A stretch of DNA of 25,676 nt from a virus (IMGVR_UViG_2698536687_000007), one strand, 5' to 3'. Positions 558-25,676 are shown, counted from the stretch's first letter. Program-made: numbers and translations. The notes: generated from the sequence alone by a model not told the origin.

Positions 558-2782
<2,225 letters not shown>

Positions 2783-2802
<20 letters not shown>

Positions 2803-3112
2803 TCTCCCGCATATTGCCAGCATGGCTTTTAATGAGCCGCTGATGCTTGAACCCGCCTATGCGCGGGTTTTCTTTTGTGCGCTTGCAGGCCAGCTTGGGA
2901 TCAGCCGCCTGACGGATGCGGTGTCCGGCGACAGCCTGACTGCCCAGGAGGCACTCGCGACGCTGGCATTATCCGGTGATGATGACGGACCACGACAGGC
3001 CCGCAGTTATCAGGTCATGAACGGCATCGCCGTGCTGCCGGTGTCCGGCACGCTGGTCAGCCGGACGCGGGCGCTGCAGCCGTACTCGGGGATGACCGGT
3101 TACAACGGCATT
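2783..3112 (+). pseudogene. C: Head protease/scaffold gpC, N-terminal fragment (~110 aa) ending at an inversion junction
   Basis: GTG at 2783 in frame with ORF 2648..3130; translation (V)TAELRNLPHIASMAFNEPLMLEPAYARVFFCALAGQLG...PYSGMTGYNGI matches the lambda gpC N-terminus, then diverges (RRMPL-stop) at ~3113. Confidence 0.75.
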
Positions 3113-4595
3113 AGACGGATGCCCCTTTAATGGGGATCACCCGGAACAGCCCATGTTTTTTCGAGCGTTCATACACAATGGTCGGGTCAATCCCGCCAGT
3201 ATCCCAGCAGATACGGGATACCGACATTTCTGCACCATTCCGGCGGGTATAGGTTTTATTGATGGCCTCATCCACACGCAGCAGCGTCTGTTCATCGTCG
3301 TGGCGACCCATAATAATCTGCCGGTCAATCAGCCAGCTTTCCTCACCCGGCCCCCATCCCCATACGCGCATTTCGTAGCGGTCCAGCTGGGAGTCGATAC
3401 CGGCGGTCAGGTAAGCCACACGGTCAGGAACGGGCGCTGAATAATGCTCTTTCCGCTCCGCCATCACCTCAGCATCCGGACGTTCGCCGATTTTCGCTTC
3501 CCATGTCTCACCGAGCGTGGTGTTCACGAAGGTTTTACGTTTTCCCGTATCCCCTTTCGTCTTCATCCAGTCTTTGACAATCTGCACCCAGGTGGTGAAC
3601 GGGCTGTACGCCGTCCAGATGTGAAAGGTCACACTGTCCGGCGGCTCAATCTCTTCACCGGATGACGAAAACCAGAGAATGCCATCACGGGTCCAGATCC
3701 CGGTCTTTTCGCAGATATAACGGGCATCAGTAAAGTCCAGCTCCTGCTGGCGGATGACGCAGGCATTATGCTCGCAGAGATAAAACACGCTGGAGGGGTC
3801 ATCCGGCGTCCATTTGAGGCCAAACGGCGTCTCTTTGTCGCCAAATTTAAGATACTGCTCCTCCCCGCAGTGCGGGCAGGCAACATGAAAACGCATAAAA
3901 TGCAGGGATTCACTGGCTGCACGCTCAATCTGGCAGGTGCCTCTCACTTTGGGCGTGGAGCCACGGATGGACTTTGGCCAGACCGAGCCTTCAATACGTT
4001 TGTCGCCAAGGAACGTCGGAGAGCCTTCCTGTTCAATATCCTCATCAAAGGCAGCAAGTTCATCATAACCCGCCACATCCACCGACTTTTCACGGTAGTT
4101 TTTTGCCGCTTTACCGCCCAGGCACCAGAAGCCACGACCATTGGAAAAACGCTTCATAGTGAGCGTGTTATCCCGGTGCTTTTTGCCATACCACGGAGCC
4201 AGCGCCAGCAGCGACGGAATATCGCGGATGGTCGGCTCAACGTGGGTTTTCATAAAGTTCTCGGCATCACCATCCGTCGGCAACCAGATAAGGGTGTTGC
4301 GCTGCTTATGCTCTATAAAGTAGGCATAAACACCCAGCAGCATTTTGGAATAACCGACACGGGCAGACTTCACCACATTCACCTCACGGATGTAGTCGCT
4401 GCCCATCGCATTCATGATGGCCCGCTGAAAGGGCAGTGTTTCCCAGCGCCCTTCCTGGTATGCGGATTCTTTCGGGAGATAGTAATTAGCATCCGCCCAT
4501 TCAACGGCGGTCTGTGGCTCCGGCCTGAACAGTGAGCGAAGCCCGGCGCGGACAAAATGCCGCAGCCTGTTAACCTGACTGTTCGATATATTCAC
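3111..4595 (-). pseudogene. A: Terminase large subunit, N-terminal fragment (lambda gpA, about residues 1-494)
   Basis: Minus ORF, MNISNSQVNRLRHFVRAGLRSLFRPEPQTAVEWADANYYLPKE...RVIPIKGASV then stop; continuation of gpA ([11 protein letters not shown]...) is found inverted at 558. Confidence 0.9.
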
Positions 4596-5115
4596 TCAGC
4601 AACCCCGGTATCAGTTCATCCAGCGCGGCTGCTTTGTTCATGGCTTTGATGATATCCCGTTTCAGGAAATCAACATGTCGGTTTTCCAGTTCCGGAAAAC
4701 GCCGCTGCACCGACAGGGGGATCCCGTCGAGAATACTGGCAATTTCACCTGCGATCCGCGACAGCACGAAAGTACAGAATGCGGTTTCCACCACTTCAGC
4801 GGAGTCTCTGGCATTTTTCAGCTCCTGTGCGTCGGCCTGCGCACGCGTAAGTCGATGGCGTTCGTACTCAATAGTCCCTGGCTGGAGATCTGTCTCGCTG
4901 GCCTGCCGCAGTTCTTCAACTTCCCGGCGCAGCTTTTCGTTCTCAATTTCAGCATCCCTTTCGGCATACCATCTTATAACGGCGGCAGAGTCATAAAGCA
5001 CCTCATTACCCTTGCCACCGCCTCGCAGAACGGGCATTCCCTGTTCCTGCCAGTTCTGAATGGTACGGATACTCGCACCGAAAATGTCAGCCAGCTGCTT
5101 TTTGTTGACTTCCAT
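4570..5115 (-). CDS. nu1: Terminase small subunit Nu1 (181 aa)
   Basis: Minus ORF, MEVNKKQLADIFGASIRTIQNWQEQGMPVLRGGGKGNEVLYDSAAV..., lambda Nu1-like; 3' end overlaps the A fragment start as in lambda. Confidence 0.9.
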   Translation of the reverse strand: MEVNKKQLADIFGASIRTIQNWQEQGMPVLRGGGKGNEVLYDSAAVIRWYAERDAEIENEKLRREVEELRQASETDLQPGTIEYERHRLTRAQADAQELKNARDSAEVVETAFCTFVLSRIAGEIASILDGIPLSVQRRFPELENRHVDFLKRDIIKAMNKAAALDELIPGLLSEYIEQSG

Positions 5116-5330
5116 TGTTCATTCCACGGCCAAAAACAGAGAAAGGAAACGACAGAGGCCCAAAAGCTCGTTTTCAGCACCTGTCGTTTCCTTTCTTTTC
5201 AGGGGGTATTTTAAATAAAAACATTAAGTTACGACGAAGAAGAACGGAAATGCCTTAAACCGGAAAATTTTCATAAATAGCGAAAACCCGCGAGGTCGCC
5301 GCCCCGTAACCTGTCGGATCGCCGGAAAGG
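5116..5330. other. Lambda-type cos site: cosB (R-site repeats), cosN 12-bp cohesive-end sequence at 5293..5304, cosQ side to the right
   Basis: Reverse complement of 5281-5310 reads ...GACAGGTTACG|GGGCGGCGACCT|CGCGGGTTTTCG, i.e. the lambda cohesive-end 12-mer with lambda-like flanks (from memory). Repeated GAAAGGAAACGACAG elements at ~5141-5155 and inverted at ~5181-5196 resemble Nu1-binding R sites. Confidence 0.7.
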
Positions 5331-5503
5331 ACCCGCAAAATGATAATAATTATCATCTGCATGTCACAACGTGCATCTACGCCATCAAACCACGTCAAAT
5401 AATCAATTATGACGCAGGTATCATATTAATTGATCTGCATCAACTTAACGTAAAAACAACTTCAGACAATACAAATCAGCGACACTGAATACGGGGCAAC
5501 CTC

Positions 5504-5737
5504 ATGTCAACGAAGAACAGAACCCGCAGAACAACAACCCGCAACATCCGCTTTCCTAACCAAATGATTGAACAAATTAACATCGCTCTTGAGCAAAAAG
5601 GGTCCGGGAATTTCTCAGCCTGGGTCATTGAAGCCTGCCGCCGGAGACTGTGCTCAGAAAAAAGAGTTTCTTCTGAAGCAAACAAAGAAAAGAGTGACAT
5701 TACTGAATTGCTCAGAAAACAGGTCAGACCAGATTGA
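5504..5737 (+). CDS. ynfO: Small prophage protein, YnfO-like (77 aa)
   Basis: ORF 5504..5737, MSTKNRTRRTTTRNIRFPNQMIEQINIALEQKGSGNFSAW...; position after cos and before ydfO matches Qin gene order as recalled. Confidence 0.6.
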   Translation: MSTKNRTRRTTTRNIRFPNQMIEQINIALEQKGSGNFSAWVIEACRRRLCSEKRVSSEANKEKSDITELLRKQVRPD

Positions 5738-6932: not shown

Positions 6933-7203
6933 GATGTTACCGTAGTATGTGAGTATCCATCGAATAGACACCAAGCAAAAAAGCTCCCGAAGGAGCCTTC
7001 ATTTTCACTTTTTTAAATCCAACGACAGACGGCTGGCATTTAAGTATTGTGAAATATTATCAAATGTAATCATCATTGATTTACAAAAGATACATTTTGC
7101 CCCGAAAGGATTCATGTCAGAAACATCAAAAGATGATGTTCTATACTGGGAACCATGACAACACGGGCATCTAAAGTGAATATGGTTTGTAATATTGTCT
7201 ACC

Positions 7204-7416
7204 TCAAAGCGCCACTACATGAACAGCGGCAGGACCTTTAGGTCCGTTCTCAATACCAAATTCAACTTCCTGATTCTCAGTTAATGTTTTGAAATCGTTG
7301 CTCTGAATTGCTGAGAAATGGACAAACACATCTTTGCTGCCATCTTTCGGCGTGATGAAACCAAAACCTTTTTCAGGGTTAAACCATTTCACTAAACCAG
7401 TCATTTTGTTAGACAT
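7204..7416 (-). CDS. cspI: Cold shock protein, CspA family (CspI-like, 70 aa)
   Basis: [70 protein letters not shown]; RNP motifs KGFGFI and VFVHF. Confidence 0.9.
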
Positions 7417-7778
7417 AATTATTACCTTTTGAAGAAATTAGCCCTTGGGCAGAATGGTCCGAAAAAAAATATCAGAGAGAAAAACCAACAAGGAAATCTC
7501 AAGAGGTACAAATAATAAAATTATAACAATGACTGCTTCAGATAAATTTGTAACAAACCAGAACACCATTAACGCATGATTAACCACCCATAGCAAGGAT
7601 TACTTTTGTAAAGAAAAACACAGCAATGAAAGAATAGCTTTATTTATTAATAAAACGTGTCATTCTGATTAAGACCTTTTATCTTACCCTTAAGATTTCA
7701 GGAATTTTGGCTCATGGAAGAGTCCTTTTTATTTAAATTTTACATTCCGCGATGTAAATGTTCCGATTTAATATTACC

Positions 7779-9334: not shown

Positions 9335-9553
9335 ATCCTCACCCCGATGTACACGGATGGTGCAATATGTTTGAAAAGATCGGAGTCTACGGGGTAGTTT
9401 TGACAGCACACGTTGTTCTCAACGGCGCTAAAAAAACATACACATTAAAAATGTGGGTAATTATTTTGAAAGAAAGTCATATATAAAATAATAATACGAG
9501 AAATGTTTTCATATTTAGTGTACTGTATACGGCCATTTATACAGGAAAAGCCT

Positions 9554-9806: not shown

Positions 9807-10087
9807 GAGATTGTGGTGCTTTTTGTGGGAGTCATCCACTTACGCACTTTGTTTTGCCATGCCAGCAGTTAGCTTCTGCTGTAAAACTATTCATGCAGCA
9901 AACCTGCACTTCACCACAATGGTTAGCATACTTTTCCTGATTAAGATTTTGCCAAATATGCTAGCCATTGTTTCATGTATTGGACCTCCTTACTTTTTAT
10001 TAAAGAGATCCAATATTCACTACTCTGTCCGTATCTCTACTCAGGCATCAGCCTTCTTCGTTATCGTATACAGACGAGCGATGAATT

Positions 10088-10303
10088 TTAATCAGTAATG
10101 ATGACATTTGCTGCTGCAGGACCTTTAGCACCACTCTCTATAGAGAAGGTAACCTTTTGACCTTCAAATAAGGTTCGATAATTATCATTCTGAATCGCAG
10201 AAAAATGCACAAACACATCTTTACTACCATCAACAGGAGAAATAAAGCCGAAACCTTTATCAGCGTTAAACCATTTTACTAAACCAGTCATTTTATTTGA
10301 CAT
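10088..10303 (-). CDS. cspB: Cold shock protein CspB-like (71 aa)
   Basis: [71 protein letters not shown]. Confidence 0.9.
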
Positions 10304-10603
10304 TCTACATTCCTTAACTTGAGCCTTTCGGCATAAATGGTTTGCATAACAGAAACGACTTCGTACTTAATTGGAGAGACTCAAAGAAGGAATAAGTGAA
10401 TAACACCTGAAATGAGAACTGCTTTAGTAAACTACTTCGTATATCGTCTGTTCTTCAAACCGACGCAATCATTAACGCATAGTTGAACATATGAAGCAAT
10501 GTTTATTTTAGACATCCAGCCATCTTCAACCCCATCAAAAAACTATAGCTTTCTTCAGGAACGTGTGTATAGTGCGCCAAGTTATCAGTATTAAGGAATT
10601 TTT

Positions 10604-11237: not shown

Positions 11238-11954
11238 TTATCTCGTCACCTTCCTCAATTGCGCTTCCGCGTATGCTTCTTCCTGCCAGCACTTTGTTAC
11301 CAGTTTACCAATGACGTCCGCATACCCCTTATACCACTGATAATCGGTCAGGTCTGGTACCAGCTTCTGGACATGACGTCGTGCCAGCGTGGTCGGTAAA
11401 CGACTAAACCGGTTTCCATTACAACGCCCACAAATCTTATATACCGGTACGCCATGAAACCGGGTTCTTTTTTCATCCAGAACAATCCCTTTACCCTTAC
11501 ACCCTCTGCACGCTGTGCTGGCTTCGCCCTTACCATGGCAATGCTGACATAGTTCCTTCACCCATTCTTCCTTGATTACAGATTCCCCGCGTCTGTAGTG
11601 TTTCACCACTTCGCGCAATACATTATAAAATCCCGTACCTGAACAATGCTCACAGCGAGCCTTACTTGCCGCAGACCTGGAGTAATCAGCAAAGGCAAAA
11701 CTCACGAGGTAAGGAATAATCTGTAACCGGATTTCTTCACTCAATTTGTTCAATGTCGGGTTATCCAGTGCCATCGCGTAATTTAGCAGGCCTTCAATCG
11801 CAAACTGAGGGTCCTGAACACCAACTTTTGCCAGAAATAAGGCCAACCCAAGTGGTGCTTTCGACTTCACCATCCCCTGCGCTGCCATTTCAACGCACAC
11901 AGCATAGAGGCCATCTTCACAAAAAATTTTACGCAGTTCTTCGATGTTCATCAT
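11238..11954 (-). CDS. quuQ: Late-gene antiterminator Q (238 aa)
   Basis: Minus ORF with cysteine-rich zinc-binding motifs (CEHCSGTG, CQHCHGKG, CRGCKGKG, CGRCNG) typical of lambdoid Q proteins; located upstream of the lysis cassette. Confidence 0.8.
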   Translation of the reverse strand: MMNIEELRKIFCEDGLYAVCVEMAAQGMVKSKAPLGLALFLAKVGVQDPQFAIEGLLNYAMALDNPTLNKLSEEIRLQIIPYLVSFAFADYSRSAASKARCEHCSGTGFYNVLREVVKHYRRGESVIKEEWVKELCQHCHGKGEASTACRGCKGKGIVLDEKRTRFHGVPVYKICGRCNGNRFSRLPTTLARRHVQKLVPDLTDYQWYKGYADVIGKLVTKCWQEEAYAEAQLRKVTR

Positions 11955-12069: not shown

Positions 12070-12102
12070 GAAAATAAAAACAAAAACCCGCCGAAGCGGG
12101 TT
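12070..12102 (-). terminator. Rho-independent terminator 3' of hokD (AACCCGC-CGAA-GCGGGTT plus T-run on minus strand)
   Basis: Stem 12085-12091 / 12096-12102; minus-strand T-run is the complement of the A-run 12070-12084. Confidence 0.55.
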
Positions 12103-12170
12103 AAGTGCGGGTGCGTTGAGGATGCCTGCCACATCAGAGGTGGCGAGGGATTTCTCCCCCGCCGGGTCTC

Positions 12171-12326
12171 TTACTCCTCAGGTTCGTAAGCTGTGAAGAC
12201 AGCGACCTCCGTCTGGCCGGTTCGGATTCGTACCTCGCAGAGGTCTTTCCTCGTTACCAGTGCCGTCACTATGACGGTTAAACAGATGACGATCAGGGCG
12301 ATTAACATCGCCTTTTGCTGCTTCAT
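12171..12326 (-). CDS. hokD: Hok-family small membrane toxin (51 aa)
   Basis: Not in the ORF track. Reverse-complement reading gives MKQQKAMLIALIVICLTVIVTALVTRKDLCEVRIRTGQTEVAVFTAYEPEE-stop, directly 3' of relE. Confidence 0.75.
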   Translation of the reverse strand: MKQQKAMLIALIVICLTVIVTALVTRKDLCEVRIRTGQTEVAVFTAYEPEE

Positions 12327-12397
12327 AGCCTGCTTCTCCTGTCAACGCAAAGCAGAAGTGTCACCTTCGGTGCGAAACAGAGATGTCATGCTTTGGT

Positions 12398-12685
12398 TCA
12401 GAGAATGCGTTTGACCGCCTCGCTATATACTTCCGAGCGTTCTCTTTTCCCAACAGAAATCACGAAAACGACAACTTTCTCGTCTATAACCTGGTATACA
12501 AGGCGATAGCCTGAAGACCGGAGCTTAATCTTGTAACAATCAGGCATACCACGGAGCTTGTTTGCTTCAATCCGGGGTGACTCAAGTACTTCAACCAGCT
12601 TCTTTTTCAACTGTTCACGTACCGTCGAGCCCAGCTTTCGCCATTCCTTTAGTGCCCGCTCGTCAAAATCCAGAAAATACGCCAT
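12398..12685 (-). CDS. relE: RelE mRNA-interferase toxin (95 aa)
   Basis: MAYFLDFDERALKEWRKLGSTVREQLKKKLVEVLESPRIEANKLRGMPDCYKIKLRSSGYRLVYQVIDEKVVVFVISVGKRERSEVYSEAVKRIL. Confidence 0.9.
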   Translation of the reverse strand: MAYFLDFDERALKEWRKLGSTVREQLKKKLVEVLESPRIEANKLRGMPDCYKIKLRSSGYRLVYQVIDEKVVVFVISVGKRERSEVYSEAVKRIL

Positions 12686-12924
12686 CAGAGTTCATCCAGC
12701 GTCACACGTACTGGCTTAGGATTACGAAGCCGTTCTTTCACTATCTCCACAAGTTCAGCATCTTCATCACTCAGGAGTGTCTGTTTGAACGGCAAGCGTT
12801 CATTGTCAGCGATATACTCGAGCATGAGACGAAGCGCTTCAGAAGGAGTTACACCCATTTTTTCAAGCGCGGCGTAAGAACGCGCTTTAAGTTCATCGTC
12901 AATACGCAGGTTAATGCTACCCAT
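12685..12924 (-). CDS. relB: RelB antitoxin (79 aa)
   Basis: MGSINLRIDDELKARSYAALEKMGVTPSEALRLMLEYIADNERLPFKQTLLSDEDAELVEIVKERLRNPKPVRVTLDEL; stop overlaps relE start (ATGA). Confidence 0.9.
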   Translation of the reverse strand: MGSINLRIDDELKARSYAALEKMGVTPSEALRLMLEYIADNERLPFKQTLLSDEDAELVEIVKERLRNPKPVRVTLDEL

Positions 12925-14179: not shown

Positions 14180-15620
14180 ATCTACCCTATGAATGGATAT
14201 GCACTCAACCGAATCGATCTTGGTTTCAATCTTTTTTATCGGGATCAGGCTTCTTTTTAGGTAACTTCGGGGGCTTAACTTGCTGATGACTTTGCGTTCG
14301 GCGCGTAAGCCAGGGATGGTCAGCTTTAGGTTTAACATAGTATTTTGAGCGTAAATCAATACGGGCATTATCCACTCGTTCATGGACACTCTTTTCATCA
14401 TCCAGTGGTATAGGCTCCGGGCCATCAACATACTTTTCCCAGCCCAGCGCTTTCCCGTCATACAGAACGTTAATTTCACCGTCAAAGTTCTCGCATACAG
14501 TAACAACCGAATGCCTAAGTCGATATCCCCGGCCCTCACTGCGTACCTGAAACGCACTGCTTTTGTACTGGAAAGTGAGATTTTTAGACAGAACGCGCTT
14601 CGCCTGTAGGCTGAAGATATAACCCAGTTCCTCTTCAGAATGGTGCACATCAAGATGAGCATTATCAGTAGTACGAGGCGACGTAGCGAACCGGTTGTTA
14701 TAGGCTTCAATAAAGGTCGGCAACCATGCATTTGCTGTTTCAATATCACTGATATTCTGAAGCCGCATTTCTTTGACCAGCCTGTCCTGTAGTGTCTGAT
14801 TGGCGCGCTCTACCCGCCCTTTTGCCTGCGGGCTGTTGGCATGGATTGGCTCGATGCCCAGTGTCTTTATCGCACGAGTGAACTGGGTCAGCTCACCTTC
14901 CCGCTCTGGGTTATTTACCCTGAATATACTGTGTCTATCAGAGTAGAGAGCGAGCGGTACGCCATGATCATTAAGGTAACCCCGGAGGGTTTCCATGTAA
15001 GCCCGGGTTGTTTCAGCAGGCACAAAACGCAACGCCATCAACGCACTGGTGGCATCATCAATGAAAACGATCAGTGTACATCTGGGGCCTCGATTTTCAA
15101 ACCAGTCATGAGGTGAGCCATCAATCTGGATCAGTTCACCGTAAGATGGTCGTCGCATGCGGCGTTGATATATACGGGCAATTTTACGACGGCGTTCACG
15201 CCATAACCCCTCTTCTATCATCCACTTTCTGAGAGTTTCAACGGATAAAGATAAACCGTGTATCTCGCGCAATTTTTCGCACGCAAACGTAGGTCCAAAA
15301 TCAGCGTAACGGCCTTTGAGGAGTGAAATTACTGTTGCTCTGAATTCAGTAGAAAAGGAATTATTAGGACGCTTTCCACGTCGGTGGGAAACCAGACCAG
15401 AAGGCCCTTCATTTCTATACCGTTGCACCAGACGTTTAACCTGCCGAATAGAAATGCCAATGCGTGCCGCAGCTTGTTCCTGAATAATCTGAAGTCGGTG
15501 GAGTTCCTTATGACTCATCGTAACAGTCTCTTTGATCATGAAAAATCCCCCAGAGAATTGTCTGGGGACATTTTAGAATGGTTCAAAGGGGACATTACAG
15601 CTTGGTGTTAACAATAGCCT
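14180..15620 (-). mobile_element. Insertion sequence carrying a single DDE transposase; ends not resolved
   Basis: One 437-aa transposase ORF (14226..15539) with no neighbouring phage homologs; I could not identify clean terminal inverted repeats by eye, so the boundaries are approximate. Confidence 0.4.
14226..15539 (-). CDS. DDE-type transposase (HTH plus integrase-core rve-like domain; ISNCY/IS481-like), 437 aa
   Basis: N-terminal HTH-like region (IGISIRQVKRLVQRY) and a central region with spaced acidic residues (LIQIDGSPHDWF..., ALYSDRHSIF..., AKGRVERANQTLQ) typical of DDE/rve transposases; lysine-rich C-terminus. Confidence 0.7.
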   Translation of the reverse strand: MIKETVTMSHKELHRLQIIQEQAAARIGISIRQVKRLVQRYRNEGPSGLVSHRRGKRPNNSFSTEFRATVISLLKGRYADFGPTFACEKLREIHGLSLSVETLRKWMIEEGLWRERRRKIARIYQRRMRRPSYGELIQIDGSPHDWFENRGPRCTLIVFIDDATSALMALRFVPAETTRAYMETLRGYLNDHGVPLALYSDRHSIFRVNNPEREGELTQFTRAIKTLGIEPIHANSPQAKGRVERANQTLQDRLVKEMRLQNISDIETANAWLPTFIEAYNNRFATSPRTTDNAHLDVHHSEEELGYIFSLQAKRVLSKNLTFQYKSSAFQVRSEGRGYRLRHSVVTVCENFDGEINVLYDGKALGWEKYVDGPEPIPLDDEKSVHERVDNARIDLRSKYYVKPKADHPWLTRRTQSHQQVKPPKLPKKKPDPDKKD

Positions 15621-15873
15621 GCTTCTCCGTGCCTTTCGGCACGTAAGAGGCTAACCTACATGTGTCTAGCATGAAATTGGCCTCAGATTAATGTTAAGCG
15701 TCTTGCAGGACGCGTAATGTTAACTGGGGCTTTTCTCTATCTGCCGTTGGTGTCCATGCCCGAGGCAGATAGCCTCAAGCACCCGCAGTCATTCTACTTA
15801 ACTAAGATTTCCCCGCAAACCGTTTTTGTCCAGCACAGTAAATATCCAACTAAACCAATGGAGTTCGCTGTAT

Positions 15874-16092
15874 TTACCGCCAGTATTCAATGCACATGAC
15901 CGCCATGAACACCCCTAAAAAAAGGGCATTTATATATCCAAATATTAATATCAAAACATCAACTTTTTCCATATACCTTGCTGTGAAGATGATGGGCATA
16001 CATGATGCGAACAACCAGAACGCAACAAACAAAAACTGCAATGCGTTTTTCATTATTCCTCCTACAATCAATGTGCAATTACATTTAAACAC
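15874..16092 (-). CDS. Hypothetical small membrane protein (two predicted TM helices)
   Basis: ORF 15874..16092; ...MKNALQFLFVAFWLFASCMPIIFTARYMEKVDVLILIFGYINALFLGVFMAVMCIEYWR; strongly hydrophobic; start uncertain. Confidence 0.3.
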   Translation of the reverse strand: MFKCNCTLIVGGIMKNALQFLFVAFWLFASCMPIIFTARYMEKVDVLILIFGYINALFLGVFMAVMCIEYWR

Positions 16093-17205
16093 ACCTCAAT
16101 TTGGCCGGACATATAAATATCTAAACCAGAAAAAATCACTTACATAGCGTTACAAACTCTTTAGTCTAAAGGTTCATCGTAAAACATTCCCCATACTTAT
16201 CAGTCCGTTCCGCGCCAGGTAGCTCATTGCCTTATCTGGCAACCTGTAATCAGGTTTCCGCTTTTTCAGTTGGCTGGTCGTTTAACCGACATAGTTAATC
16301 CATTAATCTAGTTGCCGGATGTTGGTGGATTTTCGCGTTTTAGTTGTTCATAAAAGTGCACAGCTTTAACCAGTTCTTCTGATGTAACTGGGACTGGTGA
16401 GGCAGTGAATAAGGCCTGAATTTGATAGTTCGGCCTGTCGTTACAATCCTCTTTTTTCGGTACATATTTCCAGTCACCAGACCACTACTTCCCCTGAAAG
16501 TCCGTAACGCCTTTTTTCACGTAGCGATATCGCCATGCCACTGGTTTTGCTTGCCCCGCCGTTTCATGCCCTTCCTGATAATTAATCTCGCTCATTCATC
16601 GCCCCACTCATCACAATATGCTTCGACCGGAGTTTTTCCCGCTTCATAGTCATCACGCTAGGATTCGACATCAGCAGCACTTCCACCGCGTAACTCACCA
16701 TAGTCCATTAATAGTTCATCCCGCTCTTCAAAACTGATGTTATATTTAGCTGAACAAAAATCAGCCACTTTGTTCTTCCTCATCGTCTTTTATTTCGTGG
16801 TATGAGTAATTGCAGTAGTTAAAGAAAATTTCTTATGCTCCGTCATGAATTTCCTCAGGTGTTGCGTCATCGTCCACTTCGAATACATCCTCAAAATCTC
16901 CACCAGCTATTCCCGTTTCAATAATAATTTTGAACTTTCGCATTTCACTACCGCCCTTTCGGGCGGCCTCCTGATGTTCTGAGGGTGCAGAAATCCATCC
17001 GGTTAAGGATTAAATTTTATTTACAGAACTGAATTTAATTATTCAGATATACGTATCTGTAGCCTTACGAATCTACTCACTGGATGCCTCTTTCATAAAA
17101 ATAATCCAGTGGGTTTTATCGTTTTTTCCCTGTTCGTTGACAGATAACAGGTTTTCTGTCTGTCAGTGCCAGAATCTGGCTTACCGGTATTTGCGTTTCA
17201 TTCCA

Positions 17206-19150: not shown

Positions 19151-19338
19151 GCACGTGATGCTTTTTCCGTCAGTAATTTCACGATACAACCTGAAATCAT
19201 TAATCCGGATAGACGCATCGCGCGACCTTCGGGAACTAAATCCCCTTTCCAGCTATAAAGCGAAGCCAAACGAATACCTGCTGCTTGTGCAAGTTTTGTT
19301 TTTGAACCGAAATACAAAAGAGCGTCAGTTTTAAGCAT
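19147..19338 (-). CDS. dicC: Cro-like small HTH regulator, DicC/YdaS-like
   Basis: MLKTDALLYFGSKTKLAQAAGIRLASLYSWKGDLVPEGRAMRL...; divergent from dicA across an operator-containing intergenic region. Confidence 0.7.
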   Translation of the reverse strand: MLKTDALLYFGSKTKLAQAAGIRLASLYSWKGDLVPEGRAMRLSGLMISGCIVKLLTEKASRA

Positions 19339-20869: not shown

Positions 20870-20927
20870 TTTCTGGTGACGTTTGGCGGTATCAGTTTTA
20901 CTCCGTGACTGCTCTGCCGCCCTTTTT
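20870..20927 (+). ncRNA. dicF: DicF small regulatory RNA (ftsZ-targeting sRNA) with its intrinsic terminator
   Basis: TTTCTGGTGACGTTTGGCGGTATCAGTTTTACTCCGTGACTGCTCTGCCGCCCTTTTT matches the DicF sequence as I recall it; GC stem plus T-run at the 3' end; sits between ydfC and dicB. Confidence 0.8.
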
Positions 20928-24109: not shown

Positions 24110-24361
24110 ATGAGCGAAGTAATCATGATTGTCTCTCCCGGCAAATGGGTATCCGAAGAGCAGTTAATTGCGCTGAAAGGAATAAAAAAAGGTACGTTAA
24201 AAAAGGCCCGGGAAAAATCGTTTATGGAAGGAAGGGAATATAAGCATGTCGCTCATGACGGTATGCCATGGGATAACAGTCCATGCTTTTACAACCTGGA
24301 AGAAATTGATCGCTGGATTGAGCGCCAGGCATCAGCGAGACCAAGACGTCATCTTACTTGA
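24110..24361 (+). CDS. xis: Excisionase-like protein (83 aa)
   Basis: Small basic ORF immediately 5' of the integrase on the same strand; MSEVIMIVSPGKWVSEEQLIALKGIKKGTLKKAREKSFMEGREY...; assignment by position and general resemblance only. Confidence 0.5.
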   Translation: MSEVIMIVSPGKWVSEEQLIALKGIKKGTLKKAREKSFMEGREYKHVAHDGMPWDNSPCFYNLEEIDRWIERQASARPRRHLT

Positions 24362-24395
24362 CTAAAAGCCACACTAACTAATGAGAGAAGTTGAA

Positions 24396-25676
24396 ATGAA
24401 ATATCCGACAGGCGTGGAAAACCATGGAGGGAAATTACGTATCTGGTTTGTTTATAAAGACGTAAGAGTCAGGGAAAATCTGGGGGTTCCTGACACAGCA
24501 AAAAACAGGCGCGTTGCAGGTGAACTACGCTCCTCTGTTTGTTACGCAATAAAAACTGGTGTTTTCGACTATGCAAAACAGTTTCCCTCCTCACGCAATC
24601 TGGAAAAATTTGGTGAGGCCCGACAAGATTTAACCATAAAAGAACTGGCTGAAAAATTTCTGGCACTGAAAGAAACTGAAGTCGCCAAAACATCACTCAA
24701 CACATACCGTGCCGTCATCAAAAATATCCTGAGCATAATCGGTGAAAAAAATCTTGCCTCATCGATTAATAAAGAAAAATTACTGGAGGTTCGTAAAGAG
24801 TTACTGACTGGATACCAGATCCCCAAAAGTAACTATATTGTTACACAACCAGGGAGATCGGCTGTAACTGTAAATAATTACATGACAAATCTTAACGCCG
24901 TGTTCCAGTTTGGTGTTGATAACGGTTACCTGGCAGATAATCCGTTTAAGGGGATCTCGCCATTAAAGGAATCAAGAACCATTCCGGATCCTCTTTCGCG
25001 GGAAGAATTTATCCGTCTTATCGATGCGTGCAGAAATCAGCAAGCAAAAAATTTATGGTGTGTTTCTGTTTATACTGGAGTTCGCCCTGGTGAGCTGTGT
25101 GCACTTGGATGGGAGGACATAGATCTGAAAAATGGAACAATGATGATCAGGAGAAATTTAGCAAAAGACCGTTTCACGGTACCAAAAACACAGGCGGGAA
25201 CCAATCGGGTCATTCATCTTATTAAGCCAGCAATCGACGCTCTCCGGAGTCAGATGACATTAACGAGACTGAGCAAAGAGCATATCATTGATGTTCACCT
25301 CAGAGAGTATGGCAGAACAGAAAAACAAAAATGCACCTTTGTTTTTCAACCTGAAGTGTCAGCGAGAGTAAAAAATTATGGTGACCATTTTACCGTTGAC
25401 TCAATAAGGCAGATGTGGGACGCAGCAATAAAACGTGCCGGACTCCGCCATCGAAAATCATATCAGTCGAGACATACTTATGCCTGCTGGTCGCTGACAG
25501 CTGGTGCTAACCCGGCATTTATAGCAAACCAGATGGGCCATGCAGATGCGCAAATGGTATTTCAGGTATACGGAAAATGGATGTCTGAAAACAATAATGC
25601 ACAGGTAGCTTTGTTAAATACACAGTTAAGCGAGTTTGCCCCAACCATGCCCCATAACGAAGCAATGAAAAATTAA
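24396..25676 (+). CDS. int: Tyrosine site-specific integrase (phage integrase family)
   Basis: ORF 24381..25676; likely start MKYPTGVENHGGKLRIWFVY at 24396; C-terminal catalytic region with conserved Arg, His...Arg...His and Tyr (HRKSYQSRHTYACWSL...QVYGKW); stop codon is the last three bases of the window. Confidence 0.85.
   Translation: MKYPTGVENHGGKLRIWFVYKDVRVRENLGVPDTAKNRRVAGELRSSVCYAIKTGVFDYAKQFPSSRNLEKFGEARQDLTIKELAEKFLALKETEVAKTSLNTYRAVIKNILSIIGEKNLASSINKEKLLEVRKELLTGYQIPKSNYIVTQPGRSAVTVNNYMTNLNAVFQFGVDNGYLADNPFKGISPLKESRTIPDPLSREEFIRLIDACRNQQAKNLWCVSVYTGVRPGELCALGWEDIDLKNGTMMIRRNLAKDRFTVPKTQAGTNRVIHLIKPAIDALRSQMTLTRLSKEHIIDVHLREYGRTEKQKCTFVFQPEVSARVKNYGDHFTVDSIRQMWDAAIKRAGLRHRKSYQSRHTYACWSLTAGANPAFIANQMGHADAQMVFQVYGKWMSENNNAQVALLNTQLSEFAPTMPHNEAMKN

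Follow-up and report, generated by a model that had tools for sequence, protein, structure and literature searches.

A sequence-intact lambda-type cos site and Nu1 homologue beside a broken terminase, probably the passive remnant of a recently decayed Qin-family prophage of Escherichia coli

Why would a prophage that has lost most of its head and tail genes still carry what appears to be a complete lambda packaging site? The question is raised by a viral stretch of 25,676 nucleotides (IMGVR_UViG_2698536687_000007, analysed whole and called the window below), in which a sequence-only reading had noticed the lambda cohesive-end sequence, lambda-like flanks with R-site-like repeats and an intact Nu1 ORF next to a split gpA, and had proposed that a helper lambdoid phage of the same terminase specificity could package the element in trans. 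The window matches with 100% identity the chromosome of E. coli N61, isolated from bovine mastitis, in which the element is inserted between ydfJ and rspB, the locus of the K-12 cryptic prophage Qin, with cos lying between ynfO and nohA. Comparison of the N61 and MG1655 annotations gives the same gene order as in K-12 Qin: ydfJ', ynfT, ydfK, pinQ, tfaQ and stf', then nohA, ynfO, ydfO, gnsB, ynfN, cspI, rzpQ, rrrQ, essD, cspB and cspF, and lastly Q', rem', hokD, relEB, flxA, dicC', dicA, dicB, xis, int and rspB. In addition to int and xis, an O-like replication gene is intact; at the other end, tfaQ, pinQ, ydfK and attL lie just beyond the window edge, next to the stf' remnant. Matches at the Rfam gathering score were obtained for cspA-type thermoregulator leaders upstream of cspI and cspB (7177-7562 and 10072-10464, both on the minus strand), for the Sok antitoxin RNA at the hokD locus (15613-15784, minus strand) and for the DicF sRNA (20871-20922, plus strand); the two leaders, Sok and DicF are expected Qin features. 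We read the element as an allele of Qin, and its cos as an ordinary lambda-type site rather than as a new kind of element.

We analysed the cos region by aligning the minus strand of positions 4500-5620 with the joined ends of lambda (NC_001416). The 12-nt cohesive-end sequence, GGGCGGCGACCT, is present as an exact match at 5293-5304 on the minus strand, as had been claimed, and this is its sole exact copy in the window (0.00 expected from 100 shuffles). It belongs to a complete lambda-type cos (5139-5334, minus strand) in which the subsites follow the lambda order and spacing (Table 1). Identity is 100%, with no indel, from lambda bp 48487 through bp 53, which covers cosN and I2. The flanks and repeats noticed from the sequence also proved to be what they seemed, cosQ, cosN, I2, R2 and R1 being those of lambda and R3 differing by one substitution; R1 and R2 were independently recovered as a 26-nt inverted repeat. 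cosQ is the subsite at which packaging terminates (PMC4669245), while I2 is essential and the spacing between cosN and cosB is subject to a requirement (PMC4856287). The two changes in I1 are both common to PhiR42_1 and 2H10, and the best match to the IHF consensus, which by our own reading lies at lambda bp 79-91, is unaltered in the window. The earlier reading had named substitutions at the nicking positions or in the R sites as what would tell against a usable cos: the alignment revealed an unsubstituted cosN nicking site, and the sole R-site change, G54A in R3, leaves the critical positions 56, 58 and 59 unaltered.

Across positions 5116-5360 the window differs from lambda by 11 substitutions and one 1-bp indel (∼95% identity). 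The indel corresponds to lambda bp 138, and the base is absent also from DE3, Kati, Turner, mEp332, 2H10, PhiR42_1 and K-12 Qin. The lambda record NC_001416 has an extra G at this position, between R2 and R1, which is probably a base specific to the reference and not a lesion in the other phages. The 1-bp 'deletion' was considered as a lesion and dropped, since every other lambda-type phage examined, DE3 too, is without the base. A scan for promoters and terminators near cos returned matches at chance level only. By every sequence criterion applied, the cos is intact and a member of the lambda cos family.

Table 1. Features of the window, with their lambda or PhiR42_1 counterparts
Feature	Position in window	Strand	Counterpart and remarks
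cosQ (GGGTCCT), packaging-termination subsite	5328-5334	minus	identical to lambda bp 48473-48479, same spacing
cosN, 22-bp nicking site, partly symmetric	5288-5309	minus	all 22 bp as in lambda
I2 bent segment (lambda bp 18-50, critical bp 30-35 included)	5255-5287	minus	100% identical to lambda
cosB R3, TerS-binding site (CATTTCCGTTCTTCTT)	5237-5252	minus	15/16 positions as in lambda; G54A
I1 region, R3-R2 interval (IHF site)	5198-5236	minus	two changes from lambda, bp 73 and bp 102
cosB R2, inverted orientation	5182-5197	minus	as in lambda
cosB R1	5139-5154	minus	as in lambda
nohA / Nu1, terminase small subunit	4570-5115	minus	intact 181-aa ORF; annotated nohA in N61
gpA N-terminal fragment (aa 1-494)	3114-4595	minus	490/494 identical to lambda gpA; annotated pseudogene
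gpA C-terminal 147 aa	558-998, stop codon to 1001	plus	inverted block
W	998-1204	plus	inverted block
Portal B	1201-2802	plus	inverted block
C, first 110 aa	2783-3112	plus	inverted block
Side tail fibre gene (stf') C-terminal remnant	1-558	minus	directly abuts inverted block
Excisionase and integrase, intact	24110-25676	plus	attR end of the 28.3-kb element; 99.95% identical to PhiR42_1
Collinear segment	3112-11892		PhiR42_1 25691-16911; 99.97% identity
Collinear segment	11885-19212		PhiR42_1 15222-7894; 99.96% identity
Collinear segment	19210-25729 (past window end, in N61 locus L001)		PhiR42_1 7531-1013; 99.95% identity
Inverted block	558-3113		PhiR42_1 25690-28245; inverted relative to the rest of the element, 98.75% identity
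17.5-kb deletion	absent		PhiR42_1 28246-45749
1,688-bp deletion scar	11885-11892		PhiR42_1 15223-16910 absent; 8-bp alignment overlap at junction
362-bp deletion scar	19210-19212		3-bp alignment overlap

The genes next to cos are preserved unequally. The Nu1 ORF, whose ATG lies at 5115 (equivalent to lambda bp 191), is intact as had been stated, with its full 181 aa and a full-length match to Pfam Phage_Nu1 (PF07471, E=2e-101). It differs from lambda Nu1 by three conservative changes (K48R, A75T and L132I), none of which falls in residues 1-47, which include the recognition helix, or in the C-terminal gpA-binding end. With residues 1-47 as in lambda and the subsites described above, the cos is assigned lambda packaging specificity. 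The gpA gene, in turn, is split as described: its two pieces lie on opposite strands and are broken within the nuclease domain. The N-terminal fragment comprises the Pfam GpA_ATPase domain and the first 60% of the nuclease domain; the 294-position GpA_nuclease profile matches at 2-177 on this piece and at 195-286 on the C-terminal piece. With the break inside the GpA_nuclease domain, neither piece is expected to be a working endonuclease. The genes of the inverted block are backed by Pfam matches, and the only morphogenesis genes left are W, portal B, 110 aa of C, a tail-fibre fragment and tfa. Most head and tail genes are indeed absent, 17.5 kb being missing.

The state of the element can be read against that of a closely related phage. 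PhiR42_1 (PV340562.1) is a complete phage genome in GenBank, with ECOR13 as laboratory host; its status as a phage is that given by the GenBank record. It carries the whole Qin gene set together with complete Nu1, A, W, B, C, D, E and so on to J, stf and tfa, and is 100% identical to the window over 1.3 kb from ynfO through cos to Nu1. The three collinear segments (Table 1) contain 7 mismatches in ∼22.6 kb. The 1,688-bp deletion takes the C-terminus of rem, ydfU and the N-terminus of the antiterminator Q, rem and Q being annotated as pseudogenes, and the 362-bp deletion takes the C-terminus of the cro-like dicC and the N-terminus of cII; these two deletions abolish late-gene antitermination and damage the cro/cII region. 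From the overlap of the attachment cores, the prophage ends lie at positions 9393 and 37729 of the N61 locus L001, which gives an element of 28.3 kb, that is, a phage of ∼47.9 kb minus the three losses. The 48-kb PhiR42_1 record is written in prophage order and not in cos order. Its two ends (3-782 and 47888-48668) both match L001 9638-10418, in the ynfT region; the record seems to carry a terminal overlap of ∼780 bp, its true length being ∼47.9 kb. A truncated ISNCY-family transposase pseudogene (14496-15518, minus strand) lies within the prophage; since it is also found in PhiR42_1 (transposase, 12083-12880), it is older than the decay.

The rearrangement that splits gpA is rare. Of 5,426 complete E. 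coli genomes, N61 and LR-03 are the only two with the junction between gpA and C, while at least 80% of the window is matched by 225 genomes; among the matches listed, the match begins exactly at the junction (3112). The two junctions of the inverted block, 558/559 and 3112/3113, share a 2-bp TA. The block is less similar to PhiR42_1 than the remainder of the element (98.75% versus ∼99.96%), and it may come from a different phage lineage. A site-specific inversion of the Pin/Hin type, prompted by pinQ 3 kb away and by the TA common to both junctions, was considered as the cause of the split; it is unsupported, with no crossover core at the junctions, as a search for the crossover core AAACCNNGGTTT gave chance-level matches only and none at the junctions of the inverted block. 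Taken as a whole, the element looks like a wreck of very recent date that owes its defects to rearrangements rather than to point mutations. With ∼3 substitutions per 10 kb, fewer than 0.1 changes are expected in the 245-bp cos. The cos is intact because the decay is recent and point mutations are few, and under the null expectation a 245-bp cos would carry no mutation. The word 'retained' in the sequence-only reading, with its hint of selection, is not borne out by 7 substitutions in ∼22.6 kb relative to PhiR42_1.

Our preferred reading, to which we give a probability of about 0.8, is that the cos and the Nu1 homologue (nohA) belong to a Qin-family lambdoid prophage, the recent wreck of a PhiR42_1-type phage, and persist as a passive remnant. 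Four rearrangements would have made the element defective: the inversion that splits gpA, the 17.5-kb loss of head and tail genes, the 1.7-kb deletion that truncates Q and the 0.36-kb deletion in cro/cII. By itself the cos would be inert, without a nuclease-competent gpA, without proheads and without Q-driven late transcription; as Q is truncated, the late operon is not antiterminated.

A different reading holds that selection has preserved cos and nohA for some advantage to the host or to the phage community: they might, for instance, serve as a decoy by which incoming terminase is titrated or led astray, or as a reservoir module from which phages can be rescued. It draws on the survival of cos and a Nu1 homologue in both of the old K-12 wrecks, Qin and DLP12, and on the abundance of the site: any lambda-type cos match is found in 4,591 of 5,426 complete E. 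coli genomes (85%), with a median of two places per genome, and a lambda-type cos region covering at least 80% of the 245 bp is found in 3,971 of them. However, frequent lysogeny with lambda-like phages accounts for this prevalence, and since the whole element is ∼99.96% identical to PhiR42_1, the conservation of cos gives no signal of selection. The deletion of the nohA 3' end in K-12, where it is fused to stfQ, speaks against selection on the protein, and Nu1 itself is broken in other contigs. Of the 69 IMG/VR contigs that were informative, 52 carry both Nu1 and A intact and 8 an intact Nu1 beside a shortened A, and in several Nu1 is broken. The combination of intact cos and Nu1 with a damaged gpA is an ordinary stage in the decay of prophages, and we judge it quite unlikely that the N61 module was domesticated, whether as decoy or as reservoir.

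Could a helper nevertheless mobilize the element? In lambda, TerS dimers bind R3 and R2 over an IHF bend at I1 and TerL is thereby placed to nick cosN; terminase, still attached to the cosB end (Complex I), then docks on a prohead and translocates DNA from Nu1 towards A, up to a downstream cosQ-cosN that is encountered once the head is nearly full (PMC4669245, PMC4856287). A helper terminase packages repressed passive tandem prophages straight from the chromosome, cos to cos (PMC4669245); terminases of the cos type depend on a second cos, and tails cannot join where DNA protrudes (PMC6687093). The N61 Qin cos could probably be cut in trans by a helper terminase of lambda specificity. When a lambdoid phage of lambda specificity grows in the cell, its terminase would bind R3, R2 and R1 with IHF at I1, would next nick cosN and remain on the cosB end, and one-ended packaging would then start towards nohA, tfaQ, ydfJ and the flanking chromosome. 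Such a helper may even be resident, as N61 contains three places with A- or C-like sequence.

The geometry of the locus decides how far this packaging would lead. Packaging from cos runs towards lower window coordinates and attL lies 7.9 kb downstream of cos; past this distance it exits the prophage into ydfJ, ydfI, dcp, dgcZ, marRAB and the lsr operon. The chromosome downstream of cos (N61 2304130-2350000, locus L128, and L001 1-9400) carries dcp, dgcZ, IS3, marRAB/marC, the lsr autoinducer-2 operon and hipBA. No second cos (with at most one mismatch) was found within 63 kb downstream (17.3 + 45.9 kb scanned), and the idea of a packageable chromosomal segment defined by a second cos was dropped on this result. 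Without a downstream cosQ-cosN, packaging cannot terminate properly. The likelier outcome would be homologous recombination stimulated by the break at cos, feeding Qin DNA to the incoming phage; one-ended particles, abortive or trimmed, would be rare at most.

Transfer of the element as a satellite would require another route, in which the element, 28.3 kb long, would use its own Int and Xis to excise upon infection by a helper or its induction, would replicate and would be packaged as concatemers by helper terminase from cos to cos in helper capsids; its spread would resemble that of a natural cosmid or of a cos-type PICI. The intact int, xis and O-like replication gene and the intact cos of lambda specificity fit this route, and natural islands that carry cos are mobilized by lambda and phi80, as plasmids with a cloned cos are transduced (PMC6092414). 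Against it stand the gene content and the distribution of the element: no capsid-size or packaging-redirection genes are annotated, the element is a plain deleted copy of a full phage, its cro/cII region is damaged and its Q truncated, and the occurrence of the gpA junction in 2 of 5,426 genomes is unlike the pattern of a spreading element. Size argues against it as well, for one 28.3-kb unit amounts to 58% of the lambda chromosome and two to 117%, and no whole multiple fits. According to Feiss and co-workers, efficient terminal cos cleavage and stable particles are said to fall within ∼78-105% of the lambda length. The size limits of cosmids are consistent with such a packaging window. Cos-type PICIs fill the head with three units of ∼15 kb or use small capsids (PMC6092414). 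Satellites of the PICI kind measure ∼10-15 kb, with multiples or a small capsid fitting the helper, and the N61 element, at 28.3 kb, falls outside this range. Nor does it show hijacking functions: its cosB is lambda's own and all its genes are, by annotation, those of its parental PhiR42_1. Both parts of this scheme, excision with packaging in helper capsids and PICI-like spread, are very unlikely in our estimate. Efficient satellite-like transfer of the element as a unit is unlikely because the geometry is one-ended, there is no second cos, and 28.3 kb lies outside the length window. The earlier proposal of packaging in trans is thereby divided: a sequence-intact cos of lambda specificity is present and has precedents for use in trans, whereas packaging of the element itself is not supported, in view of the exit from the prophage after 7.9 kb, the lack of a second cos in 63 kb and the misfit of the 28.3-kb unit.

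The substitution in R3 deserved separate attention, G54 being conserved in lambda R3, R2 and R1 (CGTTTCC) and replaced in the window R3 (CATTTCC). Positions 56 and 59 of R3 matter for its recognition by TerS, and lambda with a change at 58 becomes dependent on IHF (Feiss et al., PMC4669245). IMG/VR was scanned for exact copies of the 77-nt cosN-I2-R3 sequence, G and A both being allowed at position 54. A54 was found in 30 of 120 contigs with an exact cos, and in 10 of the 17 A54 contigs that extend far enough downstream Nu1 measures 181 aa and gpA 641 aa; A54 is also present in K-12 Qin. Judging from this occurrence, G54A appears to be a common and tolerated natural polymorphism. That it disables TerS binding, alone or with the I1-flank changes at bp 73 and 102, and leaves a dead cos is the least likely of the readings considered: the base is conserved across the three lambda R sites yet altered in the window R3, but the identical allele stands in the deposited phage PhiR42_1 and in the ten IMG/VR contigs with full-length Nu1 and gpA, the adjoining bp 53 varies in phages 2H10 and PhiR70_1, the positions shown to matter are 56, 58 and 59, and R2 and R1 are perfect.

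Variation among lambda-like phages extends into cosN. PhiR70_1 (PV340577.1, locus L131, 526-537) has the cohesive-end variant GGGCGGAGACCT, with C to A at position 7, and C53T in R3, which shows natural variation of both cosN and R3. We also compared haplotypes across cosN (window 5288-5340) with K-12 Qin (L127), lambda, Turner, Kati and the IMG/VR loci L007-L126. All four combinations of left arm (lambda 48467/48471/48486) and right arm (bp 54/73/102/134) were observed; K-12 Qin combines a lambda-type cosQ side with a window-type cosB side, and Turner shows the reverse. Such a mosaic boundary at cosN is consistent with recombination concentrated at cos.

Under a further reading, which we hold to be unlikely, the dead Qin cos would act as a fixed directional entry for helper terminase, followed by one-ended packaging of the adjoining ∼40 kb of chromosome. 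If true, trimmed transducing particles carrying ydfJ, dcp, dgcZ, marRAB and the lsr operon would be formed well above background, a cryptic prophage would drive a cos counterpart of lateral transduction, and the locus would be a hot spot of recombination; the mosaic boundary exactly at cosN is consistent with this last part. Under the preferred reading of a passive remnant, the interest of the locus is chiefly negative: a very recent decay explains the intact cos, and the geometry speaks against satellite-like spread. A cryptic prophage of most laboratory and many wild E. coli strains nonetheless carries a sequence-perfect lambda packaging signal. This bears on the mosaicism of lambdoid phages, which may gain DNA from resident wrecks, on artefacts caused by cos ends in analyses of phage termini and, in principle, on rare helper-driven mobilization of nearby chromosomal genes such as marRAB.

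How, then, does the N61 cos compare with known systems? In common with the cos-type PICI EcCICFT073 and with cosmids, it places a cos on a non-autonomous element for which lambda or phi80 terminase acts in trans (PMC6092414, PMC9026076). Islands of the EcCICFT073 type have features of their own, namely a size of ∼15 kb, a distinct cosB, the redirecting protein Rpp, dedicated induction and replication, and packaging as multimers; the N61 element, in contrast, is a phage reduced by deletions to 28.3 kb, has the cosB of lambda and lacks the PICI adaptations. One-ended particles of lambda docL reportedly (in the classical literature) arise from a chromosomal cos that is cut and used for packaging. 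In passive tandem prophages, too, chromosomal cos is cut and used by terminase in trans (PMC4669245). In these cases either two cos sites are separated by one genome length or a full prophage defective in excision is induced, whereas the N61 element has a single cos with no second one within 63 kb. Lambda and PhiR42_1 have the same subsite order, spacing and sequence, PhiR42_1 being 100% identical across cos-Nu1; in the N61 element, however, the partner genes (nuclease-competent gpA, proheads and Q) are missing or broken, and therefore its cos cannot act without a helper.

That cryptic lambdoid prophages such as DLP12 and Qin keep cos and a Nu1 homologue is already known, nohA and nohD standing for 'Nu one homologue'. 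The cos-nohD (nohB) region of DLP12 likewise belongs to a defective lambdoid prophage, with a lambda-type cos, a Nu1 homologue and a truncated gpA. Experiments have shown that the cos and nu1 of DLP12 work when brought into lambda by recombination, the junctions being clustered at cos (PMC3945230). DLP12 is nevertheless another prophage at another integration site, and function has been shown for it, whereas the N61 Qin cos is known from its sequence. K-12 Qin shares with the N61 element the ydfJ/rspB locus and the flanking genes, and their cosN and cosB/Nu1 do not differ between lambda bp 1 and about bp 719, G54A being common to both. The K-12 allele differs in its lambda-type cosQ arm, in the deleted 3' end of nohA with its fusion to stfQ, in having no gpA remnant and in its disrupted intQ. 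The N61 allele, in contrast, combines a full nohA, gpA 1-494, the inverted A'-W-B-C' block and intact int and xis with other deletions.
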